Source of the DNA: Flavobacteriales bacterium
Lineage (GTDB): Bacteria; Bacteroidota; Bacteroidia; Flavobacteriales_F; PHOS-HE28
NCBI GenBank assembly: GCA_016713865.1
Contig: JADJOG010000001.1
Span: 2,274 to 66,273 of the forward strand
DNA: 64,000 nucleotides
Direction: 5' to 3'
Shown here in pieces: positions 9,091 to 61,700 of the stretch. The stretch's first letter is position 1. Each line of letters begins with the position of its first letter. The position numbers and the translations under genes are program-made. The notes beneath the pieces were generated by a model that searched no databases, was not told the origin of the DNA, and was given only the letters and a program-made list of their open reading frames with translations.

Positions 9091-9432
9091 ATGAACACGA
9101 TTTCACGCATACTGATACTGGCTGCATTAGGCATGGCGCCTGCTGCAGCCCTACGTGCGCAGCAAGGCACCATCGGATCGGAGCACCGCTACCAATTCAG
9201 CCTCGCGCAGGCGCCATCGTCCTACAGCGAGAAACTGATGCTCGAGTCCTTCAGCGGCTTGGATCCGGAGATGCGCGTGGACATTGACCGTGGCGAGCGT
9301 TCGCTCAAGATCCTCGCTTATCGCCCGCTCGATCAACAGGAGCTCATCCGCATGGCCGCGAGCCATGGCATTGGCATGCAACCAAGGAATCCGCGTCGGG
9401 ATCCTGATCCAACCTTGATCGGCAATCAATGA
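9091..9432 (+). CDS. Small secreted protein (113 aa). Member A of a three-member paralogous family with a predicted ferredoxin-like/HMA-like βαββαβ core and no CxxC.
   Basis: Signal peptide MNTISRILILAALGMAPAAALRAQ. Its stop (TGA 9430-9432) overlaps the ATG (9429) of the downstream giant gene. It aligns with the proteins at 13062 and 15863, for example KLMLESFSGLDPEMRVDIDRGERSLKILAYRPLDQQELIRMAASHG. Confidence 0.6.
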   Translation: MNTISRILILAALGMAPAAALRAQQGTIGSEHRYQFSLAQAPSSYSEKLMLESFSGLDPEMRVDIDRGERSLKILAYRPLDQQELIRMAASHGIGMQPRNPRRDPDPTLIGNQ

Positions 9433-12400
9433 GCAGCGCCATGAAGAACATCATGAAGCACTTCTTCGCGACACTGACAACGGTTGTGCTTGGCCAAGTG
9501 GCGATGGCGCAGACCGCCACCAACAATTGCGGGTATAACGCGGGCAACGAATACCCTGTGGGCACCTCGTGCAATCTGCTCACCTTCAACAAGACGGATG
9601 CATTCACGGTGAACCTGAATGCCAGTGGATGCAACGCCGGCAACCGGGACGATGCCTGGGGCTGGTTCACAGCGACAGCGAACGTGACGAATCTGACGTA
9701 CGACCCCGCTACTAGCCAACGGCCGATCATGCATGTTTATTCCGGAGCATGTGGCAGCCTAACCCAGGTTGGCTGCGTTGAATGCCGGAAGCAATGGCGC
9801 GAACGCGAACCTGACCATAGCAACGATCCCTGGCCAGAATTACATGGTGCGCATCCAGCTGCATAACAGCGATGCGGCCATGAATGGCTCCTTTTGCGCA
9901 TGGTCGCCATCAGCGCCCGCGAACGACAATCCATGCGGCGCGGTGGGCCTGAGCGTCAGCAACTCCTGCCTCACCACCGCCGCAACCAACCTCGGCGCCA
10001 CCAGCACAGCCGGCGTTCCGGCACCAGGCTGCGGCACCTATGTGACCGGTGATGTCTGGTTCACCTTCGTGGCCCCAGCGAATGGCGCAGCAGCCATTCG
10101 CACTACTGCCGGTGGGCTTACGGATTCAGGCATCGCGCTCTATACCGCGACTGCTTGCGCAGGCACTTTCACCCTAGTGGCTTGCTCGCCGAATGGCAAC
10201 GGCAACATGGGTCAGATCAGCCAAACCGGGCTCACGCCTGGTCAAACCTATTACGTGCGCATATGGGGCGATAGCAATGCAAGTGGCACCTTCAACATCT
10301 GTGTGGTTGGCCTGCCTAACGATGAGCCCTGCGGCGCCACGGCGCTGCCAGTGAATGCCAGCTGCACGAATACCACCAGCACGAGCGCCTTCGCCACCAA
10401 CAGCCAAGGGATTCCTGCCCCGGGCTGCGCCAATTACCAAGGCGGCGACGTTTGGTTCTCCTTCGTTGCGCCAGCGAACGGCACCGTGGTCGTGCAAACC
10501 GGGTCAAGCGGAGGCCTCACCGACACGGGCTTGGCACTCTATGAAGCGACCAATTGCTCCACCGGTTACAACCTGCTTGCATGTAACGACGATGCGACTG
10601 GGCTCGGCTTCTTCAGCCGTATCATAAGCACAGACCTAGTACCAGGAACCACTTACTACGCTCGCGTATGGGGCTACGGCGGCGCAACGGGCGGCTTCAA
10701 CATCTGCGCGCATTCGCCGCCCCCGCCTGCGAACGATGATCCATGCGGCGCCACCGCGCTCACGGTGAATGCGACCTGCACGAATACCGCCACAACGAAT
10801 CTTGGTGCAACAGCTACCCCCAGCATACCGGCCCCCGGATGCGGCAACTACACGGGCGGCGATGTCTGGTTCAGTTTCGTTGCTCCGGCAAGCGGCCGCA
10901 CCTCGATCCAGACCAGTTCCTCTGGAGGCTTGGCCAACACCGCCATCGCGCTTTACAGTGCTACCAACTGCTCATCCGGTTTCGCACTCATCGCATGCGA
11001 CGACGACGCGGTCGGCTTCTTCAGTCTGATTGACCGAGTTGGCCTCACGCCGGGCGCTACCTACTACGTGCGTGCTTGGGGCGTTAGCGGCAGTGCTGGC
11101 ACATTCAACATTTGCGCATATGAACCTGCGATTGCTCCGCCGTCGAACGACGAGCCATGCGGGGCAATCGACATCGCACTAGGTACCAGTTGCACCTTTT
11201 CAGCCCGCACCAATGCAGGGGCATTGCACAGTTCAGGCATTCTATTTTCGGGCTGTGGCAATTATGGGGGCCGCGATGTGTGGTTCCGCTTCGCCGCGCC
11301 GGCAAACGGATTGGCCACCTTCCGCGTGAATACAGGAACCTTGGCGAATCCTGCCATGGCCCTGTACCAGGCCTCCAGCTGCAGCGGACCATTCACACTG
11401 ATCGCTTGCGACAATACCAGTGGCCCCGGCGATGCGCCATTCATGACCCTCACACCGCTCGAGGTCATTCCGGGCGAGACCTACTACCTGCGCGTATGGG
11501 GGCAACAATGGCACCGCTGGAACATTCGATCTCTGCGGATACACCGCGCCCAGCTCCGGCGATTGCATCTACGTGCTACGCATGTGGGACAGCCAAGGAG
11601 ATGGCTGGGGCAACAGCCGGGTGACCATTCAAGTAGGTGCAGGGCCAGCGACGAATTACTGGAACGCCAACGCCGATGAGGATGTCGCGTACATCTCTGT
11701 AAGCGTCGGACAAAGCGTCACGGTTTCCTATGCAACCGGCGGCTCCGGTGGACAGGGCCAGATCCGTTACGCCCTCAATTGATCAATGGGCCGCTTTACA
11801 TGGATGGGCCGACCCTGGCACCGGGCCGCGTTGGGCTGGCACGGCGAATTGCCAGAGTGCTACACCCCTTCCAAGTGATTGCGTTGGCGGTGCTGCGATC
11901 TGCAATGCGCAGCAGATCAGCGCGAACCCTAACAACACGGGCCTCACACAAGACCTGAATCAACTCAGCCGCGGGTGCCTTGGCTCCAATGAGCGCCAAG
12001 GTTACTGGTACCGGTTCACTGTTTCGGGCACCGGCCTGCTCGGTTTCACCATCAGTCCGAATAACGCTGGCGATGACTATGACTTCGGCATCTGGGGCCC
12101 TTACAGTTCAATCACTTGCCCACCGCGTGAAACTCCAGTTCGCTGCAACTACAGCGGTGACCCCGGCGACACAGGGCTTTCTGCCTTGGGCTCAAACCCC
12201 ACCGAGGGTGGCAGTGGGAACAAATGGTCGAGTCGATTGCCTGTGATCGCGGGCGAGAACTACTTCCTCTACGTGAGCAATTTCTCCCAGAGCGGGCTCG
12301 CTTTCGACCTCAGCTGGCAACTCGAGAGCGGCGCTAGCCTCGATTGCACCTTGCTGCCGATCCAACTCCTGAGCCTTAATGGCGCACCCGTGCCCGAAGG

Positions 12401-12905
12401 CATCCGCTTGGACTGGAGCACCGCCACCGAATCGAACTCGGCCGCTTTCGCGATCGAACGCATGAATGAATTCGGCGACTTCGTGCAGATCGGCGAATTG
12501 CCCGCCGCTGGGAACAGCAATAGCCTCATCGAATACCAATTCATCGATTCCCAGCCCATGCAAGGCTTCAACCACTTTCGCTTGAAAATGATCGACGCCG
12601 ATGGCAGCGCCGAGCTCAGCCAAGTGGTCTCCGTGGCCAATCGATATGGCGGTTTCGTCGGCTTATACCCGAACCCGGCAACGGATCACATCAGCATCGT
12701 TATGGATGAGCTCCCCGAAAGCGAGATCATCATCAGGTTCCACGATGCAAGTGGCCGACTGGTGCGCGAAGAGCGGACAATGGTCGCTGAAGGTCAATCA
12801 TTGGTGACGATTCCTTTGCTCGGCCTCGACCCCGGCCACTATGCTCTCTCGTACAGCTTTCAGAACAGCGCCATGCGATATGGCGGCAGGTTCCTCGTGC
12901 AATAG
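9429..12905 (+). CDS. Giant T9SS cargo / cell-surface protein (~1,158 aa as one reading). It has PPC-like Cys-containing β-sandwich repeats, then conserved middle modules, then a Por_Secre_tail (type A C-terminal domain). Reading frame is interrupted by three +1 shifts near 9778, 11498-11502 and 11770-11790.
   Basis: The ORF-track pieces 9429-9866, 9769-11679, 11573-11782 and 11730-12905 are contiguous by paralogy with the intact neighbouring genes. There are 4-5 ~115-aa repeats of the form 'ANDxPCGA..L.VN..C.NT..TN.GAT....P.PGCG.Y.GGDVWFSFVAP..G......GGLTD..ALY.A..C.G.F.L.AC.DD...GTFNIC'. The C-terminus ends 'LYPNPATDHISIV...'. The shift at 11498 is an extra G in a GGGGG run. Confidence 0.7.
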
Positions 12906-12923
12906 TTGTTGTTCGCGTGTTCA

Positions 12924-12954
12924 GAACAAGGCCGGGCTCAACCCGGCCTTGTTC
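12924..12954 (+). terminator. Perfect 13-bp stem / 5-nt loop hairpin after giant gene 1.
   Basis: GAACAAGGCCGGG CTCAA CCCGGCCTTGTTC, followed by GTTCATG. Confidence 0.55.
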
Positions 12955-13061
12955 GTTCATGCCCGGACCTATTGCATTGCCCTTTGCGGCAAAGGTTTAC
13001 CTTCGTCATGCTGGACAACCAGCACCGGTTCCCTTCGTCATACTTGAAACCCGAGGTTGGA

Positions 13062-13481
13062 ATGATGAGACTGTTTACCCTTTGTGCCTCTGCCATCTGC
13101 GCATTTCTGATCGCGAACTCAGCCCACGGACAGGGCGCTACCATCCATCTGCTGCAATGTGACGCGGTGATTGATGGCGCCCATGGCAAGCTAGCCGCGG
13201 AAGTCGTCAAGAACCTGGATCCACAAGCCCTGATCAGCTGGGATGGGCAATTGATGAAGATCAGGCTGAATAGCGGGATCGAGCAGCAGGAATTGCTCCG
13301 CGCCTTGAATCAAGGTGCAGCGCGATTCGCGATCCTCGGTGGCGACCCGCGTTCAGGCATGCCTGTTCGGATCGATACCGGCGACCCTTCGGGCGACGAC
13401 CTCCGCTATGAGCAGGCCAAGGCTGCATGGCTGAACCAGCAGCAGTCATTGGTCCAACCCGTTTCACCGGCAAAGGAGTGA
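13062..13481 (+). CDS. Small secreted protein (139 aa), member B of the ferredoxin/HMA-like family.
   Basis: MMRLFTLCASAICAFLIANSAHGQ signal peptide. The core 'KLAAEVVKNLDPQALISWDGQLMKIRLNSGIEQQELLRALNQGAARFAIL' aligns with members A and C. It ends 5 nt before the ATG of the next giant gene. The ORF-track start (12906) was trimmed to the signal-peptide Met. Confidence 0.6.
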   Translation: MMRLFTLCASAICAFLIANSAHGQGATIHLLQCDAVIDGAHGKLAAEVVKNLDPQALISWDGQLMKIRLNSGIEQQELLRALNQGAARFAILGGDPRSGMPVRIDTGDPSGDDLRYEQAKAAWLNQQQSLVQPVSPAKE

Positions 13482-13485
13482 TCCC

Positions 13486-15702
13486 ATGAAACGCCACCTC
13501 CTCATTCCTTGCTTCGTCCTTTGGGGAGCGTTCACGGCTCTGGGCCAATGCCCTGATAACAATACCGTGATCGCAGGTGGCGCTATAACGCCCAGTTGTC
13601 CCGGTACCACTAACGTGCCTTGTGTGCAAGGCGGTCAATACGCCTTGGTGAATGTGACCGCTGGTTATCAGTACACGTTCGCGACATGCGGCGCCTCGTT
13701 CGATACCCAGATCACGCTTTACAACAACACCGGCGGAGGCAGTTTGGGCTACAACGACGATAGCGGCACCTGCGGCTTCCTGAGCACGCAGTCGTACATC
13801 GCTTGGACTGCCGGATTCACAGGACAATTGCGCGTGCTGGTTGACCTGTACAACTGCGCGTCGAATGCGGTGTGCGCGCCGCTGACGATCACGTGCACCG
13901 TGCCTCCACCTCCGGTCACGAATGGCACGCCTTGCGCCAACCTGCCTCAAGCACTCGTGCTTTCGTGCGGTGGCGGCACCTTCAGCAATGTGGGTGGCGG
14001 GAACTCCGGCATCGCGCCCGCGCCTACTTGCGGCAATTACATCGGGGGGACACAGGATGTCTGGTTCTCTTTCGTTGCCGGACCGTATGGCCAAGTGAAT
14101 CTCTCGAGCACCGCAGGAACCATGACCGATGGCGCCATGGCGGTTTATAGTGCCCCCTCCTGCTCCGGCCCATTCACTCAAGTGGCTTGCGACGATGACG
14201 GTGGTCCTGGGTTGATGCCGCAGCTCAACCTGAACGGACTCAACCCCGGCCAGACCTATTTCGTGCGCTTCTGGGGCTATGGAACAGCCACGGGAACCTT
14301 TAACCTCTGCGTGCAAGGCGTTAGCACCGTGCCACCCGGTGGCTGCGTGTACATGCTCAACCTCTACGACGGTTTCGGCGATGGTTGGGGCAGCAGCAAT
14401 GTGGGCGTCAGCATCAATGGTGGCCCATTCACTTATTACACGGTCAGCGGCACATCGAACAGCGTGGCGATACCGGCCACCGCAGGAACCCTGATCGTGC
14501 TCACCTATAACAACTCCGGACCGTTCCAAGGCGAGAACTCCTACACGCTCACATTGGGACCTGGATCAGTATTCAGTTCCGGCAGCCCTCCTACGGCCGG
14601 CACCAGCTACGCAGGAACGCTCACCTGCAACCCGCCTCCCGCGCCGCCCGAGGATTGCATCGGCAGCATCACGATCTGCAATGCGCAGAGCTTCAACAAC
14701 AACACGAATAACACAGGGAATGTCGCTGACCTGAATGCGACCTCAGCTGGTTGCTTAACGACTACGGAACGCCAAGGCACCTGGTACAACTTCACCGTGA
14801 GTGCTAGCGGACAGATCGGATTCTCCATCAACCCTGCGAACCCCGCCGACGATTACGACTTCGCCATCTGGGGGCCATTCCCGCCGGGAAGCACGCCAGG
14901 TAGCATCTGCCCGCCGCTATCCGCGCCATTGCGCTGTTCCTATTCATTGCTTGGCGGGGCCACAGGGCTCAATTTCGCTGCAACGGATTTAACCGAACCT
15001 CCTTCGGGAGATAAATGGGTGCGCTACCTCGATGTGGTGGTCGGTCAGGTGTACCTGCTCTACATCAGTAATTTCTCGCAGAGCGGCTTGTCCTTCGCGC
15101 TCGATTGGAACCTGCAGGGAGGCGCATCGCTCGATTGCACCGTGCTAGGAGCTGACCGGTTAGCGCTGGATGCGCATGAAGAGAATGATGTTGTCGCTGT
15201 CGAATGGTCAAGCGCATCAACGGATGGCACCCACATGTACATGATCGAGCGCTTCGAGCCGGAGCATGGTTTCGTGGACATCGGTCAAGCGCTCGCGTTG
15301 CGCGATGCGCAAGGAGCCGTGAGCTATCGGCACATTGATCAAGAACCGCTTGTCGGATTGAATCGCTACCGCTTGAGGATGGTGGATGCGCATGGTTCGA
15401 GTGCGGTGAGCCATGAGGTCGTCGTGGCTCGATTCAAGCTCGATCAAGGCCCGCGGATCTCGCCGAATCCCGCTGCGGGCCTGGCCTGGATCCATTTCCA
15501 TGCACCGATGCAAGGAGCCGCTACCTACCAATTGCTCAACGCCGACGGAAGAACACTGGCCGAAGGCCTGATTCCAGTGAACGAAGGCGCTAACCGATTC
15601 GCGCTCCCGTTGATCAGCGTCGGTGAAGGCTGCTATACCCTGCGTTTGAAACTGCCCGGCGGTGAATGCCAGCACGCGCGATTAGTCGTGAGCGGTTCAT
15701 AA
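13486..15702 (+). CDS. Giant T9SS cargo protein (738 aa, intact): N-terminal Cys-rich PPC-like domains, a 'DGFGDGWGSS' β-sandwich module, the 4-Cys 'DCIG..CNAQ...DYDFAIWGPF...CPP...LRC' module, an Ig/FN3-like domain and a Por_Secre_tail.
   Basis: Signal peptide MKRHLLIPCFVLWGAFTALGQ. The C-terminus 'ISPNPAAGLAWIHFHAP...' is a type-A C-terminal domain. Modules were defined by alignment with giants 1, 3 and 4. Confidence 0.75.
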   Translation: MKRHLLIPCFVLWGAFTALGQCPDNNTVIAGGAITPSCPGTTNVPCVQGGQYALVNVTAGYQYTFATCGASFDTQITLYNNTGGGSLGYNDDSGTCGFLSTQSYIAWTAGFTGQLRVLVDLYNCASNAVCAPLTITCTVPPPPVTNGTPCANLPQALVLSCGGGTFSNVGGGNSGIAPAPTCGNYIGGTQDVWFSFVAGPYGQVNLSSTAGTMTDGAMAVYSAPSCSGPFTQVACDDDGGPGLMPQLNLNGLNPGQTYFVRFWGYGTATGTFNLCVQGVSTVPPGGCVYMLNLYDGFGDGWGSSNVGVSINGGPFTYYTVSGTSNSVAIPATAGTLIVLTYNNSGPFQGENSYTLTLGPGSVFSSGSPPTAGTSYAGTLTCNPPPAPPEDCIGSITICNAQSFNNNTNNTGNVADLNATSAGCLTTTERQGTWYNFTVSASGQIGFSINPANPADDYDFAIWGPFPPGSTPGSICPPLSAPLRCSYSLLGGATGLNFAATDLTEPPSGDKWVRYLDVVVGQVYLLYISNFSQSGLSFALDWNLQGGASLDCTVLGADRLALDAHEENDVVAVEWSSASTDGTHMYMIERFEPEHGFVDIGQALALRDAQGAVSYRHIDQEPLVGLNRYRLRMVDAHGSSAVSHEVVVARFKLDQGPRISPNPAAGLAWIHFHAPMQGAATYQLLNADGRTLAEGLIPVNEGANRFALPLISVGEGCYTLRLKLPGGECQHARLVVSGS

Positions 15703-15862
15703 CGTCTGCTTGGCTTTGAGGCAACCATGACTGCTTGCCTCGTCTCCTCTTCATCCTGAGAACCATTGCATGCCTATGGCCGTTGCAGGTGACGCCTTGG
15801 ACCGCAGCCTTTTGAACCCGCTTGGAACCCAAGCTTATATTAGCCCCAAACACCACTTTCAG

Positions 15863-16306
15863 ATGACCCGCAGATTCCTGATGCTCAGCGTTTTAGCGGC
15901 ATTCGCCGGAGCTGTGAGCGCCCAGAGCGCCCCATTCTACTTCTACCAGGCCGAGGAAGCCATCAATCGGAGCCAATTGAAGTTGATGATCTCGGCGGTG
16001 ATGGATGTGGACCCCCAAGCGGACGTGTTCCACTCGGACGACATGACCATCATCCAAGTGAAAGCGGCGAGCAATCTGCCCGCCGAAACCTACCGTGAAG
16101 CCTTGGTTAATGCTGGTGTTCGTCTGCGTGCCGGCATGCTCTCTCCGGAACAAGTGCACGCAGCGAACGCGGTTGAAGCACCGCCCATTTTCATAGCAAC
16201 GGGCGATGCGGCTGGCGATTTGGCCCGCTACCAACAAGCGGTGCAGGCTTGGAATGCCAACCACCCTGACAATCAGCTCTCTCCCACTCCGGTCCACCTC
16301 CGTTGA
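15863..16306 (+). CDS. Small secreted protein (147 aa), member C of the ferredoxin/HMA-like family.
   Basis: MTRRFLMLSVLAAFAGAVSAQ signal peptide. The core 'KLMISAVMDVDPQADVFHSDDMTIIQVKAASNLPAETYREALVNAGVRL' aligns with members A and B. It ends 17 nt before the ATG (16324) of giant gene 3. Confidence 0.6.
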   Translation: MTRRFLMLSVLAAFAGAVSAQSAPFYFYQAEEAINRSQLKLMISAVMDVDPQADVFHSDDMTIIQVKAASNLPAETYREALVNAGVRLRAGMLSPEQVHAANAVEAPPIFIATGDAAGDLARYQQAVQAWNANHPDNQLSPTPVHLR

Positions 16307-16323
16307 ACCCTAGCGTGCAGCGC

Positions 16324-19300
16324 ATGAAGCAGCACTACCTTTCTCTAGCTCTTGCATTGTCTTTGGTTGGCGCGTCGGGCGTGGCGCATGGCCAATGCGT
16401 CTCGGGCACCGGCACAACCATGATTGCCCCTGCCGGGCAAACCCCGGAGCCCCAGCAATTCACGGCCGGGGCAATCACCGCAGGGGTAGCCAACATCACA
16501 ATCATAGCACCGACAACTGGGACTGTCGGATTGGTGAACGGCATGGTGATCAGTGGACCTCCGGGTCTGTTTGCCCCAGGTACGGTGCTCACTGGTAAAC
16601 GCGACGACAATTTCTGTGGCCCCACCACCTCTGCTTACTGTTGGTGCCGGATCGATTGTCTGGTTCAATAACTGGAATGCAGCCACGGTGCCGCCGAGTA
16701 CAAACACACGCGAGTGTGAACTTCCCGCCCCCACTTGGAGGCACCCCGTCAGCAATCAACTGCACCGTCTGTCCGGCTACTTTCAGCGCGACTGTGTGCG
16801 CAGGGCAATACTTCGACTACTACATGTGCACCGGGAACAACTACACGTTCTCGATGTGCGGCAGCCCGAACTGGAACTCCACGATCACGATAACCTCCAC
16901 TGCTGGCGCTGCGACCACGAACGGTTTCCCAACCTACGACGATGATGGCTGCGGTGCAATCGGCGGGCACGCGGTGCTCAACTTCATCCCCACCACCACG
17001 GGTATCTTCCGTGTTCGCCTCTTCAACAATCCATGTACTGTGAATGGCGGGCTATGCGGCACACTGAACATCCAATGCAGCCCTAACCCTGTTCCACCGG
17101 CTAACGATGAACCTTGGAACGCGCAAGTGCTACCCGTGAGCACCGTGTGCAATTTCGTTCCAGCCTCGAATGCGTTCTCGACCGGCTCTAGCGGTCCAGT
17201 ATCGCCTCTTACTCCAGTGAACTGCTTAGCCAATTGTGTTGCCGGCTCGGGCAACTATGGTGGTGCAGATGTTTGGTTCGCTGCCAACGCAAGCCCGACT
17301 GGAACCTTGAGCGTACAGACCAACTTGGTGAGCGCGCAGAACCTGGCCATGGCGGTTTACACCGGAACCCCGGGTGTTTCGCTGAACCAAGTAGGTGGCC
17401 CCGGCTATTGCAATTCGTGCAACGACGACAGTGCGCCCACCTTACTGAACCCCTTCTTGCAGATGAGCGGTTTCGCGCCCAACCAGACCGTCTACATCCG
17501 TGTATGGTCCAATTCGGGCTTGATAAACAGCGGCTCTTTCCAAATCTGCGCCTACCACCCGGTGCCGCCACCGAACGATGATCCCTGCTTCGCCATCAAC
17601 CTGCCCATCAATACCAGTTGCAACCTCACTTCGTTCACCACCGAGAGCGCGCTGCCGTTGAGCGTGGCCATGACGACTAGCCCGGCTTTACCCACCTGCG
17701 GCACTCCCGTAGCCGGTGGCGATGTCTGGTTCACGACCACGGTTCCTGCTGGTCAATCGGTTACGATCAACACCCAGCAAGGCTCACTGACGGATATGGC
17801 CATGGCCATTTACACGCTGACCGCAGGAACGATTTGCGCGGGCACCTTGACCTAAGGCCTCTGCAACGACAACCTGACGGTGACTAACCTGATGCCCAGC
17901 GTCACCTTGCCAATCTCCGGAAGCCCGGTCACCTATTACATCCGATTGTGGAACAAGACTGCGGCATTCGGTACCGCGAGCATCTGCGTGGTGCTGAATA
18001 CGCCACCAGCGAACGACGATCCTTGTGGCGCCATTCCGTTGCCGGTTAACCTCGGCTGCGTGTTCCCATCTCCGTTCTCCACACAGTTCGCGACAACCAC
18101 AGGTACTCCATCACTTCCTCCTAGGGGTGACATCGATCGTGAACACGAATACCGGGTTATGCTCACCGGCCCTCTTCAATCCGGCTTCCCTACACGAGCG
18201 ATGTCTGGTTCACCGCGGTTGTGCCAGGGAGCGGCTCGCTCTCCTTCGATACGGATGATCTTCAGTTGAACGATGCGGCCTTCGCCGTTTACACCACGGG
18301 TGGCACAACCTGCCCCAACCTCGTGCTCACACGCGTGGCTACAAGCTGCTCCAGCGGTGGAAGCTTGAACGGCGGCAACATGCCTGTAACGAATGTGACC
18401 GGCCTGACCCCAGGGACAACGGTATACATCCGCGTTTGGCGCGATAACGCCGGAGCGAATGATGGCACTTTCGTCATCTGCGCCAGGAACCCGCAAACAC
18501 CAAGCGGTTGCTGGTACACCTTACGCTTGACCGATAGCGCTGGCGACGGCTGGAACGGCGGTTTCGTGACCTTGTGCATCAACGGTTCCTGCACCAACTA
18601 CACGGTGTATGGTTCACTATCCACCGTGGTGTTCACGGCGAACGTGGGCGATCTGGTCACCCTGTCCTACACCGCTGTCGGCGGATTCCAGAACCAAGTC
18701 TCGTGGACGCTCTCTGCCAGCACTGGCGCCAACATCTGGCCGGGCCCGATATCGAACCCGCCATCGTCAGGACCGCAGCATTCCATGACGGTGAACGCTG
18801 CGTGCAACGTGCCACCGGCGCCTATCTCCGATTGCATCGGGCACCAGGTGGTCTGCAATAACCAGAACATCAGCTACAACCCTTCGAATACGGGCAACGT
18901 GGTTGACTTGACGTCCACCAATGACGGTTGCTTGGCCGGTGAGCAGCAGGGCGCTTGGTTCGTTTTCACCACGAATGCCGCTGGAAACATCGCCTTCACC
19001 TTGAATGTGGCCGTTGGCACCGACTACGACTTCGCGGTCTGGGGACCCTTCGCGCCGGGCGCACCTCCCTGTCCGCCACCCGGAGCGCCCATCCGTTGCA
19101 ACTGGTCGGCTACCACCGGGCCAACCGGCTTGAGCCTCTCGAGCTTCACGCCATCCGTTGGTGCTGTAGGCTCACCGTTCTCGCAATGGATCACCGCTGG
19201 CGCCAACGAGATGTACATCCTCTACGTGGACAACTGGTCGAGGAATGGCATCTCCTTCAGCCTGACCTGGCAGAACACGCCTACCAACATCCTCGATTGC

Positions 19301-19846
19301 GTGCTGCCGGTTGAACTGGTCGAGTTCGATGCCTACGGCACCGGTGCTGTTGCGCAGTTGAAATGGACCACTGCCAGCGAGGAGAACCTCTCGCACTTCG
19401 TGATCGAGCGCTCGGCCGACGGTACGCGCTTCGATGCCCTGAACCAGGTGCAAGCCGCTGGCGAGCGCTCTTTGGTAACCCGTTACGAGACCATCGATCA
19501 ATCTCCGATGCGTGGCGTGAACCACTACCGCTTGCGCATGGTCGATGACGATGGCTCGGTGCAGCACAGCAAGGTGATTCCGGTGCGCTTCGGATGGTCG
19601 CCCGCCAGTGTGCAGGTGTTCCCCAACCCGGCTGGCTCCAGCCTGTGGGTGGCGGCGCACGATGTGGACGAGGGCTGGCAATGGCGCATCCTGGACGCGA
19701 GCGGCCGCATGGTGCGCGCTGGTCGTGCTATGGCCGAGAGCGCCCAATTCGAGATCCCGCTCACCATTGAATCCGGCGCGTACGTGCTGGAAGTGCTCGA
19801 CCAGAACGGCGCCACCATGGGCCAAGCCCGCTTCGTGAAGGACTAG
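16324..19846 (+). pseudogene. Giant T9SS cargo gene 3, disrupted in this sequence: a -1 shift near 16640-16670, an in-frame TAA at 17856-17858, and a -1 shift near 18180-18260. It has the same architecture as giants 1, 2 and 4 and an intact Por_Secre_tail.
   Basis: The ORF-track pieces 16303-16671, 16641-17855, 17880-18269 and 18221-19846 are all paralogous to adjacent genes. The C-terminus is '...VFPNPAGSSLWVAAHDV...ARFVKD'. Given errors elsewhere in the window, the lesions may be sequencing artefacts. Confidence 0.55.
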
Positions 19847-19877
19847 CAGGCCCGAATCGTTCATAACCCCGTTGATT

Positions 19878-19910
19878 CTGCGGCGGTTGAGTTAACCTCA
19901 ACCGCCGCAG
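19878..19910 (+). terminator. Strong intrinsic terminator (14-bp perfect stem, 5-nt loop, then a T-run).
   Basis: CTGCGGCGGTTGAG TTAAC CTCAACCGCCGCAG TTCTTTACATT, located 30 nt after the stop of giant gene 3. Confidence 0.7.
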
Positions 19911-20032
19911 TTCTTTACATTCGCCTCCTTCGGGGATTATGCGCTCCGCAGTGAACGAAACCAACTGCCCGAGCGTCTAGTGCGCGTGATCAGCAACAGG
20001 CGATTTGAATGATGAGCAAAACGGAACACACC

Positions 20033-24118: not shown

Positions 24119-25109
24119 CATGGGCATACCTGTGGACCTGTTCACAGCGCTGCGTAATGGCGATCGATCAGCGTTGGCGCGGGCCATCACGTTGATCGAG
24201 AGCACTCGCGAATCGGATAAGCCACAGGCCCGTGCATTGCTTGAAGCGTGCATGCCATTCAGCGGCCAGAGCATCCGCATCGGCATGACCGGAATACCCG
24301 GCGCAGGGAAGAGCACGATGATCGATGTCCTCGGGCTGCTCTTGCTTCAACAGGAGCATCGGGTCGCGGTGCTCGCGATCGATCCGAGCAGCGCGCGCAG
24401 CGGTGGCAGCATACTCGGCGACAAGACACGGATGGAACGGCTCGCGCAGGAGGATGGCGCGTTCATCAGGCCGACAGCCGCAGCAGGGCACCTGGGCGGC
24501 GTGGGGCGACGCACGCGAGAAGCTATCGTGCTGTGCGAGGCCGCGGGCTACGATCGATTACTGATCGAGACCGTGGGAACCGGCCAGACTGAATTGGAGG
24601 CCGACGCCCTTTCCGACGTGAACGTGCTGCTTCTGATCGCTGGTGCTGGCGATGAACTGCAAGGCATCAAGCGCGGGATCATGGAATCGGCCGATGTGAT
24701 CGTATTCACCAAATGCGACACCGCGAAGGAGCATGCGCGCAAGGCCGCCGGCGAATTACGGAGCGCCTTGCAGCTGTTGCCGCCACGGTGGCATGGCGGT
24801 CGGCCTGCGGTGCTGGTGACCAGCGCGATCACGCAAGAGGGCATCGATGAATTAGCCACTGGGATCGAAAGCCTCTCGGCTAAGAATGGCGCGAGCGGCA
24901 AGCTGGAGCAGCGCAGGCGCGAACAGGACCTCCTCTGGTTGGACCATGCCGTGAACGAATCGCTGCGAAGCGCGTTCATGCGCCATCCGGGCGTGGCAGC
25001 CGCGCTTCCGAGCATGAAACAGGCTGTGCTTGATCGGGATAAGAGCCCGTTCGCGGCCGCGGATGAAATGCTGGAACTGTTCAGAAAAGGCGACGGACCT
25101 CTTCCTTGA
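24119..25109 (+). CDS. meaB: MeaB/ArgK-family GTPase (methylmalonyl-CoA mutase-associated G-protein chaperone), 330 aa.
   Basis: MGIPVDLFTALRNGDRSALARAITLIES...; P-loop 'GMTGIPGAGKST'; motif 'ETVGTGQTE' (invariant GQ: probably MeaB-type DxxGxGQxE with an E/T for D — either a variant or an indel-affected region). The start was trimmed from the ORF-track start 24039. Confidence 0.85.
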
Positions 25110-25687: not shown

Positions 25688-25705
25688 CGGCCAGCCAAGT
25701 CACGC

Positions 25706-53951: not shown

Positions 53952-56900
53952 TCAGTTCTTGACGAACCTCGTTCGCGCAAGCGGTCTGCCTTCCGCATCA
54001 AGCGCGACGATCGTGTAGATGCCCATCGCGAGGGCATCGCAGTCGAGGTATGCGCGCCATGGCGCATCGATGATCTGTTTCCCGGCAGCGTCGGTAACGC
54101 GCATGCGGCGCGCTTCGCCGGAAGCAAGGCGGATCTGCAGCAACCCGCCGCGTATCGGATTAGGCGCTACGCTGAAACCGGAGCCGACCTCCGATTCCTG
54201 CACACCAGTGACTAGTTCGCAGGCATCGCCAACACCGTCCTCATTGGTGTCGTCTTGGTCGGGGTTATACACCCACGTGCAATTGTCGCAGCCATCACCA
54301 ATCCCATCGCCATCGAAATCGGCCTGGTTCGGATTGAACATCAAGAGGCAATTGTCGTCGCAATCGAGCACTCCATCCGCATCACCGTCGGGATTCGGAG
54401 TCACGCCCGTGCTCCCACCTGCGCATTGACCGCACGCGTCAATGAAAGCGGATCCATTAACCACCCCCGCGCAATCCAACAAAGCTTGCTCGCCAATGCA
54501 GAAGCACTGATTGTTCCACGCATCGTTCACCGTGTTCGCATTGCCATCGTTGCAAGGAGTTCCAGGTAGCGCGCTGCCGCCGGGCGTGCCCATGCAGTCG
54601 ATGAGCTGGCCCATGCATTGGCAGTTGCTGTTCCATGTGTCGTTGCCCGTATTCGGGTTATTGTCGTTGCATGGTGTGCCGGACACCGCGCTGCCGCCGG
54701 GCGTGCCCATGCAATCGATGAGCTGGCCCACGCATTGGCAGTTGCTGTTCCATGTGTCGTTGCCCGTGTTCGGGTTATTGTCGTTGCACGGAGTACCGGA
54801 CACCGCGCTGCCGCCGGGCGTGCCCATGCAGTCGATGAGCTGGCCCACGCATTGGCAGTTGCTGTTCCATGTGTCGTTGCCCGTGTTCGGGTTATTGTCG
54901 TTGCACGACGTGCCGGACACCGCGCTGCCGCCGGGCGTGCCGAGGCAATCCACCACGAGCGGCGTTCCTGCACAGCTGCAATTCACGCCGATCGTGTCAT
55001 TCACGGTATTGGGATTACCATCGTTGCAAGAAGCGCCCGGATCAAGATTCCCGCAACCGCAATTCCCGGGCGCATTCTTGTTCGGATCATTCGGACAACC
55101 ATCAGTCGCATTCGCAACATAGCCCTGAGGTTGACTGCACGCATGCATGCTCATGGCTGGATCACCCGCGCCGTCACCATCCATATCGGCATACCATGTG
55201 GTCGCTGCCGTGATGCTCACGCCCGCCGTGGTGCTGAATGCCGCGCATCCGCCCGAGGCTGCGATGCTGTACGTGACCGTGTAAGTGCCTGCGGTGCTCG
55301 CGCCGGGATTGATCGCGCCGGTGCTGCTGTTGATGCTCAAGCCGCTGGGCGCAGCGCTGTACGTACCACCCGAAGTGCCGGTGCGTGTCACGTTCACTGA
55401 TCCGCTGCTGCTGCAGATCGGCGATGCGCCGTAGGTGATCGTTGCTGATGGACCCGCCGTGATGCTCACGCTCGCCGTGGTGCTGAAGGCCGCGCATCCG
55501 CCAGAGGCTGCGATGGTAAGTGACCGTGTAAGTGCTCGCTGTGCTCGCGCCGGGATTGATCGCGCCCGTGCTGTTGTTGATGCTCAAGCCGCTCGGCGTG
55601 GCGCTGTAAGCGCCGCCCGATGTGCCGGTTCGTGTCACGTTCACTGATCCACTGCTGCTGCAGAACGGCGATGCGCCGTAGGTGATCGTTGCTGATGGAC
55701 CCGCCATGATGCTCACGCTCGCCGTGGTGCTGAAGGCCGCGCATCCGCCCGAGGCTGCGATGCTGTACGTGACCGTGTAAGTGCCTGCCGTGCTCGCGCC
55801 GGGATTGATCGCACCGCTGCTGCTGTTAATGCTCAAGCCGCTGGGCGCAGCGCTGTACGTGCCACCCGATGTGCCGGTGCGTGCCACGTTCACAGTGCCG
55901 CTGCTGCTGCAGATCGGCGATGCGCCGTAGGTGATCGTTGCTGATGGACCCGCCATGATGCTCACGCTCGCCGTGGTGCTGAAGGCCGCGCATCCGCCCG
56001 AGGCTGCGATGGTGTAAGTGACCGTGTAAGTGCCTGCCGTGCTCGCGCCAGGATTGATCGCGCCCGCGCTGCTATCGATGCTCAAGCCGCTTGGCGCAGC
56101 GCTGTACGTGCCGCCCGATGTGCCGGTGCGTGTCACGTTCACCGTACCGCTTCCCGTGCAGATGGGCTGTGTGCCGTAAGAAATCGTTGCGGAGAAGCTC
56201 GCAGCGATCGTGATCGATGCAGTAGTTGAGAATGACGGACAGCCACCGGCGGCGGCCAGCGTGTACGTGACAGTGTAGGTGCCGGGTGTGCTTGTCGATG
56301 GCGTCACATTGCCGTTGCCCGTGTTGATCGATAGGCCCGTTGGCGTTACGCTGTAGCTGCCTCCAGAATTGCCGGTGCGCGTAACGCTCACGACGCCCGC
56401 AGACGCGCAGAATGGCGATCCCACATAGTTGATGGTGGCTGTGGGCGGAGTATTCACCGTAACACCCACGGTCTGCTGCGAACTGCTGCAGCCATTGCTC
56501 ACTGTTAGCGTGTACACGCCAGAAGCAGCGGCAGTAGCAGAATTGATGGAGGGGTTCAGCGATGTGGAGGTGAATCCGTTCGGACCCGTCCAAGCATAGG
56601 TCAGAGTTCCCGAACCGGAAGCGCTCGCATTTAGGTTGATGTTCTGTCCAACGCAAATGAGGCCATTGCCGGATATGGCCGTGATGTTCGGTGCCTGAGG
56701 CAACGCGCCCAGGCATTGGCAGCTGGCATTCCAGGCATCATTGGAGGTGCATGCGTTGCCATCGTTGCACGGCGTTCCAGGAGTCGCGCTTCCGCCGGGC
56801 ACGCCAAGGCAATCCGTCGAAGAGGCGCTCTGCGCGGTGCCCATCGCACCGAGCGAGAGGTTGTAGTAGGACCCGGTATTGCTGACCTCCAGCTTCACGG

Positions 56901-58560
56901 TGCGCACCATGTATTCGCGGCCCGCAACGAAAGGAATAGCGGCATTCGTGTAGCCCGTTCCCAATACCGGCGAAGACGTCAAACGGTTGATGCTTCCATC
57001 CGCCGCGAATTCATACACGTGGTAGCCTTCGATCCCGGTTTCCGGCGATGCGGCCCAGGAGAAGGCCGCCGCGCCCGCGCTGTTGGATACTACCACGTTG
57101 GCTGGGGGCGCCACCATCTTCATGCGCAAGGTGGGATCCCCCATGAGTCCGAGATGTGTTCTGCCAATTGAGCCTTGCCAACCATCGTGAAGCGGCGTGT
57201 ATAGACTGCTGTTGTTCATAGTGAGCAGAGTGCTGTATCCGATTGGATCACCCATGCCCATGTGATGGTAGTAGTATCCCGGAATGGCAGACCAGACGCT
57301 TGCCAGGCCAGATCCGCCAGCGATGTAGGCGCGCAGGAAATTGTTGCGGTTATCCCAATCGCCGAAGTAGCTGCCAAAGGTCATGTTGAAGACGCCGCCC
57401 ATGCTGGTGGAAGCAAGGTTCTGCGTTGTCGCGATGTTGGTCGCGCCGTTAAAGGTCAGTACGCCCCCATCGCTCGCTTGTCCGCCTGCGCCACTGCTGT
57501 AGGTCCACATGTAGCTCTGGCCATTCACCAATTGGTGGAAGGGCGTACCGTTCTGATTCGCGTTAGTGATGTTACCAGCGCCAACCAAGGCAGCCATGCT
57601 GCGCCAGCCACTTGCCGCGAGCGGATTGCTCACCCACTGCAGATTGTCGAACATGAGCGCACGCTGCTGGGGCACCCAGCCCTTCAACTTGAAATCGTGC
57701 GCACGATTGAGATAAGCACGCATGAGCTCCGTGGCGCTCAACGGGAAGGCTGGCATGTTCGTCAGATCCACGCGCCCTACCTGCAATTCGAGATCGCTCG
57801 GGAAATTGCTCTGGTCGAATTTGCCATCGCTCGGGATGTTGCGGTTCTCGGCGCGCTGCGCACCATTGTTGTTCACGGTATTGTCCGTCCAATTGCCATT
57901 GAGCTCGCCATAGTATCCATCGCAGGGCCACGCGCCCTGATGCTCACTGTGACCATCGGGATTCACATTGCCCGAATACGGCACGGGCACGTGACCGATC
58001 ATATAGACGGCCTTCACGTTCGTGGGATCGGCGTTGTAGTGCCCTTGGATGATGGAACGCACGCTGGGCACGGTCGCTGAAGGCGAAACATCGCTGCGGA
58101 TCACGCCCCAGCCATCAGCGCGCAGGTCGCGCTCCAATTGCTGCAATTCAGCGCTCAGTGGCGAGGAGAATGTGTTATCGACCAAGAGGATGACACGGCC
58201 ACGGAAATCGGGCGGCTGCACCTGAATGCCCGATGAAACGTAGCCCTGTCCTGTAACACCGTTCGATACGCGCACCACGCGGTACTCGTACGCTGTGCCT
58301 ACCACGACATTGTTATCCTGCCAGCTGAGATCAGCTGCCGCTGGCGTCGCGATGGCCGTGCCCCACGACGTGGCGGTCTTCAGCTTGCGGTAAATCGTGA
58401 TGCTGGTGGTACTGGAGATCGAGGTCCAGTTGAGCGTGATGCGCGGCGGAGAGGCCTGCACCGTTGCAGCGAGTTGCACCGAAGCGCGTTGCGAGCTGGT
58501 CTGCGCGGAAGCGCCCAGCACAATGAACAGTACGAGAACGGAAGCGAGTATGCGTTGCAT
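53952..58560 (-). CDS. Giant T9SS cargo protein (about 1,535 aa). It has an N-terminal FN3-like domain, a gingipain (C25)-like α/β domain with the Cys position substituted, a Cys-rich repeat, 5 near-identical 83-aa Ig-like tandem repeats, 4-Cys ~39-aa repeats ×5, thrombospondin-3-like repeats and a Por_Secre_tail. One 2-nt deletion near 55535 splits it into ORFs 55174-58560 and 53952-55469.
   Basis: Signal peptide MQRILASVLVLFIVLGASAQ. 'VNPDGHSEHQGAW' resembles the gingipain His motif GHGSETAW. C-terminal TSP3-like '[14 protein letters not shown]...DFDGDGIGDGCDNC' and 'VAPNPIRGGLLQIRL...RFVKN'. Confidence 0.75.
54571..54960 (-). repeat. Intragenic near-identical tandem DNA repeat, 117-bp unit × about 3.3, encoding the 39-aa unit DCMGTPGGSAVSGTPCNDNNPNTGNDTWNSNCQCVGQLI.
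   Basis: Unit starts at 54571, 54688, 54805 and 54922. About 95% nt identity between units. Confidence 0.85.
55212..56205 (-). repeat. Intragenic near-identical tandem DNA repeat, 249-bp unit × about 4, encoding the 83-aa Ig-like unit (...SATITYGASPICSSSGTVNV.RTGTSGGTYSAAPSGLSI.SS.GAINPGASTAGTYTVTY.IAASGGCAAFSTTASVSIMAGP). The copy at 55461-55707 is 247 bp, which is the frameshift.
   Basis: Unit anchors 'GATGCTCACGC' are at 55212, 55461, 55708 and 55957. Confidence 0.85.
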
Positions 58561-58706: not shown

Positions 58707-61700
58707 CCTAGAACTTCACCAACCTGGCCGCCGCCAAGGGAAGCCCCTCAGCATCGAACACCATGAGGGCGTAAGTGCCCTGCGCGATGCCTTCGGAGGT
58801 TGATCAGAGGCGCAAAGCGCCGCTCAGCCACGCTCCGGCCGACGGCATCGAGGAAAATGATGCGCACCGCGCCCTTCACATCGGCGCACCGGAGGTGATC
58901 GAAGGACGGGTTCGGATGCACGCGGAATGCTGGCAAACCGGCGATCTCGACCACACTGATGTCGTCGCAGAGATCACCCACGCCATTGCCATTGACATCC
59001 TCTTGTCCGGGATTCGCCACCCAAGGGCAATTATCGCAGGCATCACCCACCCCATCACCATCGAAATCAAGCTGAGCCGCGTTCGGGACCTGCGGGCAAT
59101 TGTCATCGCAATCGAGCACGTCATCCGTATCGGCATCGGGGTTAGGCAGCACGCCGGTTGTGCCACCAGCGCAGGTACCGCAATCATCGATGTAGGCCGA
59201 TCCAGCCGGAATACCCGCGCAATCGAGCTGCAATCCAAGGCAGGTGCATGTCAATGTCCATGCATCATCCACCGTGAGCGGATCACCATCGTCGCAGGGT
59301 GTTCCTGGCAACGCAATGCCGCCGGGCGTGCCCACGCAATCGAATGGCTCGCCTAAGCACTGACAGTTGCCCAACCAGATGTCATTGCCCGTATTGGCAT
59401 TGCCATCATCGCAAGGTGTTCCCGGCAACGCGGGCCCACCGGGTGAATTCTCGCAATCGACGAGCAAGCCAACGCATTCGCACGACGCCGTGTACGCATC
59501 CAATGCGGTGGCGGGGTCACCATCGTCGCAAGGCGATCCGGGCCAGGTACTGCCGCCGTAAATCCCGAGACAATCGGGCAACTCTCCGAGGCAGTCGCAG
59601 CCATTGCTCCACGTATCGTTGATCGAGAGCGGATCACCATCGTCACAGGGCGATCCCGGTTGAGCGGAGCCACCGGGAATGCCGGCGCAATCGTAGAAGA
59701 GCCCGACACAATCGCAGTTAACGGTCCAGCGATCGTCGCCGGTGAAGAAATCGCCATCGTCGCAAGGCGCACCGGGCAAAGCAGCGCCTCCGACCTCGCC
59801 TTCGCAATCGATGAGCACGCCCGCGCACTGGCAGTTGCTGGTCCATGCGTCAAGCGCGGTGTTGTCGTCGCCATCATCACAAGCAGCACCTGCTATGGCT
59901 GCACCACCAGGAGTGCCCTCACAATCCAAGGGCATGCCCGCGCATCCGCAATCGGCATCATAGGCATCGGCACCGGTCTGCGGATCGTCATCGTCGCAAG
60001 GAGTTCCCGGCAATGCGCCTCCACCGGGCACACTCGCGCAATCGAGCGGCAGGCCAACACAATCGCACATGGCGGTATATGTGTCGTTCCCCGTGGTCGC
60101 ATCTCCATCATCGCAAGGCGAACCGGGCAAGGCGCTTCCACCGACAACACCTGCACAATCGATCAATTGCCCGATGCACTCGCACGCTACGGACCAGGTA
60201 TCATCGCCCGTCGCTTCATCACCATCATCGCAAGCCGTGCCTGGAAGCGCATCGCCACCAGCGGCCCCGGTGCAGTCGAGCTGCAAGCCCACGCACGCGC
60301 AAGCCGTTGTCCAGGTATCGTCGCCCGTGCCCGCATCACCATCGTCGCATGGCGTGCCTGGCAACGCAGAGCCTCCTGCGATTCCGATGCAATCGAGCGG
60401 GAGTCCGATGCAGGCGCAGTCCACGGTCCAGGCATCGTTGCCTGTTGTCAGATCACCATCGTCGCACGGCGTTCCTGGCAAAGCGCTTCCACCGGGCAGT
60501 CCTTCGCAATCAATCGGCTGGCCAACGCATGCGCATTGAGCAGTCCATGAATCAGTCCCGGTCAGTGGATCACTATCGTCGCATGGAGTCCCAGGAATCG
60601 CGCTGCCGAATGGCATGTCTTCGCAATCCAGATCGATCGGAACATCGGCACAAGCACAATCGACTCCATATGCATCATCAATTGTGAGTGCCAATCCGTC
60701 GTCGCACGGTGTTCCGGGAAGCGCATCGCCCCCAACAATGCCCAGGCAATCGATCAGCTCACCCGCGCATTCACAATCCGCAGACCAGCTGTCGTTGCCC
60801 GTGGTCGCATCGCCATCATCGCGGGGTGCGCCCGACAAAGCCACTCCACCCGCGACTCCTTCGCAATCGAATGGCTCACCTGCGCATGTGCAGTTCACGC
60901 TCCAGGCATCATTCCCGGTGAAGGGGTCGCCATCATCGCACGGTGTCCCAGGCAGCGCGCTTCCGCCAGCTACACCTTCACAATCAATCAGCAAACCGGC
61001 ACAGATGCAATCCGGGCTCCAGGCATCTCCGATCGTGCCGGGGTTCCCATCGTCGCAAGGCGTGCCCTGCAGCGCGGAACCGCCAGCAATTCCCTCGCAA
61101 TCGATCAATAAGCCGATGCAATCGCACGACGCATCGTACGCATCGTTTACCGTGGTCGCATCGCCATCGTCGAATGGCGATCCCGGAAGCGCAGATCCGC
61201 CCGGCGTTCCGGCGCAATCCAACGGTAGGCCCACGCACGTGCATTCACTTGTCCAGGTATCGGCACCCGTGGTGGCCTCACCATCGTCGCAAGAGGTACC
61301 AGGCTGCGCAGGGCCGCCTTCGACGCCATTGCAATCAATCGGAGGCAACGCGTAGGAGACGCACAGTTTCGCGGAACGCGTTGGGTCCTGATCATGGCTC
61401 CACGAGGTGCGGCGCCCCACGCCCCACACGAAGGCCGCCACAGCATTGCCCTCTTGCCAGCCCGGGCGATCGATCACCGACTGCAGCAATGCGGCAAGAT
61501 TCGGTGTGCGTTGCGCGGGACCGTTCTGGTTGGCCGTGGGCCACGCAGCAGGCAACCAAGTCGTTGATGCCGTGCGCGGACGCGTGGAATAACTGAAAGG
61601 CACGAAGCCCAGGGCCGGCGCGTTGGCATCGTCCTGCAGGGCAACCAGCAAGGAGCACGGATTGATCTGCGAGGTGCCACGCGAAGTGAACTGGATGCGT

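Follow-up and report, generated by a model that had tools for sequence, protein, structure and literature searches.

Frameshifts and a premature stop in conserved genes of a Flavobacteriales contig are very probably consensus errors

The 64,000-nucleotide stretch of DNA analysed here (the window), from an uncultured Flavobacteriales bacterium presumably of wastewater origin, carries frameshifts in genes as conserved as rpoD, pnp and bamA as well as in several giant surface-protein genes, which raises the question of whether the organism itself is mutated or whether the consensus sequence is wrong. A sequence-only reading of the window had counted at least 13 lesions and explained them by consensus indel errors rather than by pseudogenes. 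The lesions were found again, all within approximately 25 nt of the positions given except for an item concerning a TonB-dependent receptor, but the tally was slightly low. In total, we detected 18 frame-shifting indels (12 insertions versus 6 deletions) and one nonsense substitution, which together span 9.7–58.8 kb (~49 kb) and affect 9 of about 45 genes. The density of 1-2-nt indels is ~0.37 per kb.

Thirteen of the 19 lesions were compared base by base with same-species short-read contigs of 98.7–99.5% nucleotide identity (L081/L082, L083, L084/L085 and L088), which were taken from ENA MUNK22-1/ERZ15185901, Logan ERR1352925 and Logan ERR14964778 and represent at least three sequencing data sets. 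The ENA contigs L081 and L082 are identical to each other, as are L084 and L085, and each pair might derive from the same reads, so that independence is lower than the number of contigs suggests. Four further lesions, all in giant 1, were compared with a divergent conspecific allele (L089), and the remaining two, the N-terminal shifts of giant 3, solely with a 77%-identical ortholog. All 13 lesions covered by the near-identical contigs were present in the window only, and the four in giant 1 were absent from L089. Between two independent short-read contigs there were 15 substitutions and not a single indel. After seventeen indel edits and one base substitution, giant 1, the COG2509 oxidoreductase, bamA, pnp, rpoD and both 3′ giants each form a single ORF as long as in the orthologs. 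The explanation by consensus errors is supported, and the proposed check, comparison with orthologs after 1-2-nt edits, gave the single ORFs expected, with giant 3 still one edit short. No contigs were returned by exact-protein look-ups for the ORFs at 20009–23515, 49064–50050 and 41646–42812, for P0121 and for a 147-aa protein (15863–16306), and consequently the conspecific contigs obtained do not extend to 15.7–17.8 kb or to 1–9 kb. In the first 9.4 kb, for which the comparison was by Pfam and not with a conspecific contig, valS, abgT, ppx and an aminotransferase gene are continuous and no obvious break was seen; silent or compensated errors may be present there.

Four of the affected genes lie in the middle of the window.

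29371–30937, plus strand: FAD-dependent oxidoreductase, COG2509-like with an FAD-depend_C domain (Pfam); 2-nt deletion at 29600 (TGTG>TG)
31709–34205, plus strand: bamA (Omp85/POTRA); three indels
36775–39089, plus strand: pnp, polynucleotide phosphorylase; 2-nt insertion at 38103–38104 (TAT>TATAT)
39244–40119, plus strand: rpoD, primary sigma-70 factor; loss of T at 39402 (TT>T) and gain of G at 39599 (G>GG)

The two rpoD indels, placed at about 39405 and 39608 by the sequence-only reading, leave 66 codons between them out of frame, stops included, and distribute the Sigma70 regions r1_2, r2 and r3-r4 over three separate ORFs, in agreement with a three-frame view against orthologs. Neither indel is present in L081/L082, in which the RpoD frame stays open until the contig stops and truncates the gene at 248 aa. 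After repair, the ORF reads MARMRQLK...KAYLG. In pnp, where a dinucleotide expansion to ATAT had been noticed at 38104–38107, the Pfam domains are divided between two frames; orthologs continue through the insertion site as ...ESNGSSSMATVCSG..., and L081/L082 lack the additional TA and encode a PNPase of 770 aa. A cluster of gaps at 39000–39026, where pnp has a low-complexity C-terminal tail, was considered as a further lesion; it nets to zero, leaves the ORF unbroken and was treated as natural divergence or alignment ambiguity. An additional T was observed in intergenic DNA at 39148, and another at 12970, both outside the 18 counted indels; each could be an error or natural divergence.

The 3′ shift of bamA, expected at about 34070, was located as a gained G at 34049 (GG>GGG), which shifts the frame for the last ~50 codons; as had been claimed, the canonical terminus is intact in the other frame, with the true stop at 34203–34205. 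This insertion is absent from both L081 and the independent L083, so that two strains agree against the window. A compensating pair upstream, loss of G at 32239 (G6>G5) and gain of G at 32259, had been overlooked. BamA is intact at 806 aa in the conspecific contigs. For the COG2509 oxidoreductase (shift predicted at about 29580), tblastn changes frame at 29588–29601, and L081 carries TGTG at this site and an intact gene of 522 aa. The earlier argument that frameshifted rpoD, pnp and bamA are not credible is borne out by conspecific contigs carrying an intact PNPase, an intact BamA and an unbroken RpoD frame.

One might nevertheless assume that the lineage is degenerating, as in a host-restricted strain or one deficient in mismatch repair, and that genuine pseudogenisation proceeds by real slippage at short repeats. 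Nearly all indels in the window are run-length changes, mostly in short homopolymer or dinucleotide runs, and of the slipped-strand type, phase variation or decay often affects genes for giant surface proteins, and giant 1 is hypervariable across conspecific strains. A cell that loses the primary sigma factor or BamA is not viable. Reductive evolution would be expected to spare essential single-copy genes while dispensable genes decay, yet rpoD (two lesions), bamA (three) and pnp (one) are broken here at the only syntenic locus and are intact in a 99.4%-identical strain. Accessory genes are affected as well, and the housekeeping block carries 0.34 lesions per kb, equal to the density overall. 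The substitutions point in the same direction. Among 355 coding substitutions versus the conspecific contigs, 237 were synonymous and 118 non-synonymous (67% synonymous, 66% at codon position 3), indicating real strain divergence under purifying selection, also in the affected genes, whereas the coding indels checked against near-identical contigs were all out of frame (11 of 11) and in no case a multiple of three. Three clusters of substitutions (37569–37605, 24557–24561 and 24876–24881), inspected as possible hidden compensating indels, turned out to be plain substitutions with conservative amino-acid changes. The frameshifts resemble slipped-strand pseudogenes and phase-variable adhesin genes in their location at short repeats and, in several cases, within genes for large surface proteins, but differ from both in that essential single-copy genes are equally struck and single genes carry several lesions. 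We consider genuine pseudogenisation very improbable.

Compared with this, errors confined to the housekeeping genes would leave room for real lesions in the giant surface-protein genes.

9429–12905, plus strand: giant 1, T9SS type-A cargo gene of ~1158 codons; five frame segments through four indels
16324–19846, plus strand: giant 3, T9SS type-A cargo gene; four insertions and one nonsense substitution
53952–58560, minus strand: giant Ig/PKD-repeat surface protein of ~1535 codons; 2-nt deletion at 55516 (TATA>TA)
58709–64000, minus strand: giant TSP3-repeat protein extending past the window edge; gain of G at 58795 (G>GG)

Giant 1 had been described with three +1 shifts. Shifts are indeed present, but orthologs and L089 demonstrate four, namely insertions of T at 9778/9 (T>TT) and of G at 11498–11502 (G4>G5) and 1-nt deletions at 11775–11778 and 11811–11813. 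Its Pfam domains (PPC, four copies of GBD_T9SS_assoc and Por_Secre_tail) are distributed across three ORFs, full-length orthologs (P0172, P0167 and P0187; 1154–1165 aa) without the shifts align through the frames, and L089 shows a gap at all four sites. After repair, giant 1 is one open frame of 1165 codons. The comparison with L089 also revealed that giant 1 is hypervariable among conspecific strains.

In giant 3, the in-frame TAA reported earlier was recovered as a C>T substitution at 17853 (CAA>TAA); the two −1 shifts reported with it were wrong in sign and number, as L088 and the ortholog indicate four +1 insertions. Two are N-terminal, an A at ~16596–16598 (AA>AAA) and one nucleotide within 16706–16718, the latter placed by ortholog alignment only, at a site where the 77%-identical ortholog has ~75 extra residues. 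The other two are an A at 18123 and a C at 18188 (CC>CCC). The ortholog L086 (1228 aa) aligns to giant 3 in frames 1>2>3>2, and the conspecific L088 (99.2% identical) lacks the lesions at 17853, 18123 and 18188 and reads uninterrupted as ...TLTQGLC.... Giant 3 is the sole broken gene still split after the edits; one more at ~16712 (16706–16718) is needed, its exact place not being fixed.

The deletion in the Ig/PKD-repeat giant, correctly anticipated as 2 nt missing from one copy of a 249-bp repeat, was found as loss of TA at 55516 within a tandem array of 3.8 copies (55207–56142, TRF). The two bases are present in L084 and in the other repeat copies, and repair yields one open frame of 1549 codons. 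For the TSP3-repeat giant, a shift at about 58800 in a gene placed at 58707 corresponds to the G at 58795, which is absent from L084 and removes the last ~28 residues of the T9SS C-terminal sorting domain; without it, the protein ends ...HPNPSFDHL...AARLVKF*.

Surface-protein genes with internal repeats do slip, the lesion at 55516 lies in such a repeat, and the allele differences of giant 1 between strains are strong. The lesions in the adhesin genes could on these grounds be real, reflecting phase-variable or decaying surface proteins, and those in the housekeeping genes errors. However, the two groups match in kind and density, four to five independent lesions each in giants 1 and 3 are unlikely for a recently inactivated gene, and the conspecific contigs run uninterrupted through giants 1 and 3 and the 3′ giants at every site they cover. 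Unlike phase-variable adhesin genes, the window has no long simple-sequence tracts typical of phase-variation switches at any site, the lesions are absent in conspecifics, and purifying selection is ongoing. We therefore give such a division only a slim chance. The more specific idea that some of the adhesin-gene frameshifts, for example in giants 1 and 3 or in the 249-bp repeat, are standing variation that turns T9SS surface proteins off, amid sequencing errors in housekeeping genes, is likewise a long shot.

Two sites remain.

45016–47367, minus strand: TonB-dependent receptor, intact; TTG start at 47367, signal peptide QATRFLLSAFAVVIAAWSSAQ
47680, plus strand: additional G (GG>GGG) between the TonB receptor and a BNR/sortilin-like gene; absent from L084/L085

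The TonB receptor had been listed as a lesion for want of a plausible ATG. An ATG is indeed absent, but this is no lesion: the gene has a normal TTG start, shows no indel versus L084, which likewise lacks an ATG, and is called from the TTG at 47367 in GenBank (MBK7943812.1, 783 aa, 45016–47367). The site at 47680 is non-coding or lies within a doubtful 92-aa ORF; the BNR gene starts in GenBank at the ATG at 47829 (MBK7943813.1).

Finally, the genes might be expressed despite the shifts by programmed ribosomal frameshifting, transcriptional slippage or another form of recoding. Apart from a few sites being short runs (G5, TATAT), nothing specific speaks for this. A recoding site would be conserved in close relatives, yet the conspecific contigs and the orthologs L001 and L002 lack the frameshifts, with plain in-frame sequence at every position. 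There are neither slippery heptamers nor long poly-A/T tracts, and a TAA nonsense codon and 2-nt indels are among the lesions. Recoding is accordingly a vanishingly improbable explanation.

Taken together, comparison of the sequences makes it very probable that the lesions are consensus errors, arising by base-calling or polishing, of a presumably long-read MAG and not mutations in the organism, even though the indels could in principle be strain-specific given the 0.5–1.3% divergence of the comparison contigs. Residual 1-2-nt indels, chiefly expansions or contractions of short homopolymers or dinucleotides, would have been left in the consensus, along with one or more miscalled bases. At such sites the long-read signal may have been ambiguous, and low depth or a mixture of strains may have hampered short-read polishing. 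The indels are clustered, with 5 of 17 spacings below 200 nt (P = 0.004); this pairing suggests local polishing failure, possibly due to strain mixtures, rather than purely systematic base-calling error. The inserted bases are mostly G on one strand. No shared motif pointing to methylation-linked miscalls was evident in the ±10-nt contexts of the lesion sites.

Watson and Warr reportedly described in 2019 how indels fragment genes in uncorrected or under-polished long-read assemblies, an effect measured by IDEEL-type length-ratio tests. The window resembles such assemblies in that short-run 1-2-nt indels split conserved genes into adjacent ORFs and do not occur in conspecific short-read assemblies. 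Errors of R9.4.1 reads are usually deletions in long homopolymers; the window departs from this textbook pattern by insertions exceeding deletions, by the dominance of G insertions on one strand and by paired errors. The nearest GTDB genome (L001) is an EsbW MAG from the project of Singleton et al. (2021), in which Nanopore R9.4.1 reads were assembled with CANU and polished with Racon, twice with medaka and once with Illumina reads and Racon (PMC8012365). The window lies on a 230,279-bp contig of a GenBank MAG with proteins MBK7943791-816 and locus tag IPJ85. Judging from accession and locus-tag style, we infer that this MAG belongs to the same project; which technology produced its reads and why polishing stayed incomplete are likewise inferred.

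The errors have already reached the public protein databases (GenBank/nr). MBK7943801.1 is the frameshifted 861-aa BamA product (31709–34294) with a wrong C-terminus, and MBK7943816.1 is a 1128-aa fragment of the Ig/PKD-repeat giant, entered as a separate 'hypothetical protein'. The 23 loci from IPJ85_00115 to IPJ85_00230 yield only 21 proteins, and the accessions of rpsO and rpe are consecutive. Counted in this way, pnp and rpoD, which would be IPJ85_00180 and IPJ85_00185, appear to lack protein records, as would fit PGAP pseudogene flags.

The broken genes are very probably an artefact of low biological interest, and the finding matters chiefly for data hygiene: the lesion coordinates and edits provide a correction list for the region. 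The 'pseudogenes' of this MAG should not be taken for biology, and analyses of gene content, pseudogene load or adhesin variation would be misled by them. In the genome of the organism itself, rpoD, pnp, bamA and the COG2509 gene are almost certainly intact, and so are the T9SS-secreted giant surface proteins that it encodes.

The window (61% G+C) carries a gene set typical of Bacteroidota, including T9SS cargo genes with Por_Secre_tail or CHU_C domains, a TonB-dependent receptor with a CarboxypepD_reg domain, Omp85/BamA and a housekeeping block (meaB, ubiE, deoC, accD, rpsO, pnp, rpoD, rpe, purK and purE); no tRNA genes were found in the 64 kb. Pfam searches demonstrated that single conserved genes are scattered across adjacent frames. 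PNPase domains were split between two ORFs, Sigma-70 regions 1.2, 2 and 3-4 lay in three ORFs, the N-terminus of the COG2509-type oxidoreductase was found in another frame, and the Omp85 protein was without its C-terminus. Each of the four is one ORF in two related genomes (L001 and L002), and tblastn with their proteins located frame changes at 29588-29601, 34047-34051 and 38106-38124 as well as inside rpoD. Three-frame views placed the pnp lesion at TCT-AT[AT]-GGC and those of rpoD close to 39402 and 39599.

An exact match to the window AccD protein yielded the first same-species contigs from other data sets, and further ones were obtained via near-identical homologs of three other window proteins.

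Conspecific contigs, window range covered and nucleotide identity
L089, ENA MUNK22-1, 9054-15717, partly divergent
L088, Logan ERR14964778, 17780-25306, 99.2%
L081, ENA MUNK22-1, 25421-39987, 99.45%
L083, Logan ERR1352925, 33899-36687, 99.5%
L084, ENA MUNK22-1, 40113-63813, 98.7-99.0%

Contigs L082 and L085 (ERZ15185901) were not counted as independent because they are identical in sequence to L081 and L084, respectively. Between two independent short-read contigs there were 15 substitutions and no indels. Base-by-base comparison with the conspecific contigs revealed the following differences.

Lesions present only in the window (+, extra base; -, missing base)
17853, C>T (CAA>TAA), giant 3 (T9SS type-A cargo gene, 16324-19846, + strand)
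18123, +A, giant 3
18188, +C, giant 3
29600, -TG, COG2509 oxidoreductase
32239, -G, bamA
32259, +G, bamA
34049, +G, bamA 3' end
38103-4, +TA, pnp
39402, -T, rpoD
39599, +G, rpoD
47680, +G, non-coding or hypothetical
55516, -TA, Ig/PKD-repeat giant (53952-58560, - strand)
58795, +G, TSP3-repeat giant (58709-64000, - strand, running off the window)

In the comparison contigs, COG2509, BamA and PNPase are intact with 522, 806 and 770 aa. Small indels that leave ORFs unbroken were also observed, namely a cluster at 39000-39026 that sums to zero, within the low-complexity Arg/Asp/Pro tail of pnp, and a single +T in intergenic DNA at 39148 and at 12970; these may be either natural or errors.

For giant 1 (9429-12905, + strand), the gaps in the L089 alignment fall precisely on four sites, 9778 (+T), 11502 (+G within a run of G), 11775 and 11813 (each -1), and the frame order f2>f0>f1>f0>f2 was confirmed by full-length orthologs of 1154-1165 aa. 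Two distinct 1-nt deletions, separated by 36 nt, thus account for what the sequence-only reading had taken for a third +1 shift near 11780. Within the species, giant 1 is hypervariable: the L089 flanks are 95-100% identical (9054-9450 and 12468-15717), the interior only 64-81% (window 9650-12270 versus L089 600-2400), and the L089 allele has 882 aa versus ~1158 aa in the window, which suggests allele replacement or a change in repeat number in a surface protein. The N-terminal part of giant 3 contains two further +1 shifts relative to a 1228-aa ortholog, at ~16597 (AA>AAA) and within 16706-16718; placed through the ortholog, between the ranges of L089 and L088, these two are the least secure of all lesions. 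This ortholog has ~75 extra residues exactly at the frame change (16700-16720 versus L086 5400-5700), where the 1-nt shift may be accompanied by a natural deletion or by a collapse in the assembly.

A cassette is repeated over 9091-23515, made up of a small secreted protein and, after it, a giant gene for a T9SS type-A cargo protein that contains GBD_T9SS_assoc domains.

Cassette units
9091-9432, small protein, with giant 1
~13008-13481, small protein, with giant 2
15863-16306, small protein, with giant 3
20009-23515, giant 4, closing the series

Giants 2 and 3 are preceded by paralogous small proteins (29% identity, E = 5e-12). In giant 4, 11 purely synonymous substitutions relative to the conspecific contig fall within 85 nt (22366-22450), and in the TonB receptor (45016-47367) there are 41 synonymous and 10 non-synonymous ones; such dense synonymous tracts look like recombination between strains. 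The missing ATG of this receptor had been listed as a lesion but is none, as the N-terminus in the conspecific contig is the same, likewise lacks an ATG and shows no indel, and GenBank starts the protein at TTG 47367 (783 aa, good signal peptide). The 249-bp tandem repeat described for the Ig/PKD-repeat giant was confirmed, with 3.8 copies at 55207-56142; in the short-read scaffold L084 this array contains a gap of 100 N. Both 3' giants also contain 117-bp tandem repeats of 2.3-3.4 copies (54547-54941, 60176-60481 and 62076-62347).

Reading frames were repaired by applying 17 indel edits and 1 base substitution to the window.

Genes after repair
giant 1, single open frame of 1165 codons
COG2509, 594 codons stop-to-stop
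bamA, ends ...[10 protein letters not shown]
pnp, 811 codons stop-to-stop
rpoD, MARMRQLK...KAYLG
53.9-58.6 kb giant, 1549 codons
last giant, C-terminus ending in a T9SS sorting domain

Giant 3 remained in two pieces, the longer of 1097 codons, because the ~16712 indel lacks an exact placement.

In total, 18 indels and one nonsense codon were found in ~49 kb, affecting 9 of ~45 genes; this count of 19 bears out the earlier figure of at least 13. Nearly all are run-length changes, either of single bases (G4>G5, G6>G5, GG>GGG, CC>CCC, TT>T, AA>AAA, T>TT, G>GG) or of dinucleotides (TGTG>TG, TAT>TATAT, TATA>TA). All 11 indels within genes in these alignments were out of frame, none being a multiple of three. 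The same alignments contained 402 substitutions, 355 of them in called genes (237 synonymous, 118 non-synonymous, 66% at codon position 3; a partial giant 3 gene with 9 substitutions was scored one base out of frame), which is the pattern of normal divergence between strains under purifying selection. True pseudogenisation of rpoD, bamA and pnp is excluded, as their loss is inconsistent with viability and the selection signature in the substitutions contradicts it. Recoding is likewise excluded, since even sequences with 99.4% identity lack the shifts.

Essential genes were not spared (two lesions in rpoD, three in bamA), and the 20-kb housekeeping block, with 7 lesions, has 0.34 per kb versus 0.37 per kb overall. 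Lesions are clustered, 5 of 17 spacings being below 200 nt (binomial P = 0.004). In two of these close pairs, 32239/32259 and 39402/39599, the second indel brings the frame back. Such a pattern is in line with local failures of consensus calling and does not fit independent mutations kept by a living lineage. A mixed situation, with real frameshifts in the adhesins and artefactual ones in housekeeping genes, retains a slight probability; against it, the adhesin lesions share type and density with the others, number 4-5 in each gene and do not occur in conspecifics. The lesions covered by conspecific contigs are absent from them, and the edits give single open frames for all genes but giant 3; the data support the assembly-error interpretation of the sequence-only reading, and the lesions are almost certainly consensus errors in a long-read MAG.

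Exact protein matches (MBK7943791 to MBK7943816) identify the window as part of a 230,279-bp contig of the GenBank MAG 'Flavobacteriales bacterium', whose locus tags begin with IPJ85. The closest GTDB species representative (JADJLR010000005, isolate EsbW_18-Q3-R4-48_BAT3C.247, ~80% nucleotide identity) is a member of the Danish activated-sludge MAG project, and accession and locus-tag style suggest the same origin for the window's MAG. In that project, Nanopore R9.4.1 reads were assembled with CANU 1.8 and polished with Racon, twice with medaka (r941_flip213) and once with Racon and Illumina reads (PMC8012365). The indels comprise 12 insertions and 6 deletions, and 1-nt insertions on the + strand are G in seven cases versus C in one (one-sided P ~0.035). 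This insertion excess and G bias are unlike the classic R9.4.1 signature and may derive from the particular polishing chain or from strain mixtures, leaving the verdict unchanged.

Between IPJ85_00115 (MBK7943792) and IPJ85_00230 (MBK7943813), 23 loci correspond to 21 proteins, and rpsO and rpe are MBK7943804 and MBK7943805; by arithmetic, the two protein-less loci are therefore pnp and rpoD, which, judging from the accession numbering, were presumably flagged by PGAP as frameshifted pseudogenes. Error-derived proteins of this MAG are nevertheless contained in NCBI nr: MBK7943801.1 is an 861-aa BamA read through the 34049 frameshift to a false C-terminus (31709-34294), and MBK7943816.1 is a 1128-aa fragment (55174-58560) of the ~1535-aa giant broken at 55516. 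The feature is an assembly artefact, partly flagged already in the public annotation. Its biological interest is low, and its practical use lies in the correction list and in the warning on error-derived nr proteins.
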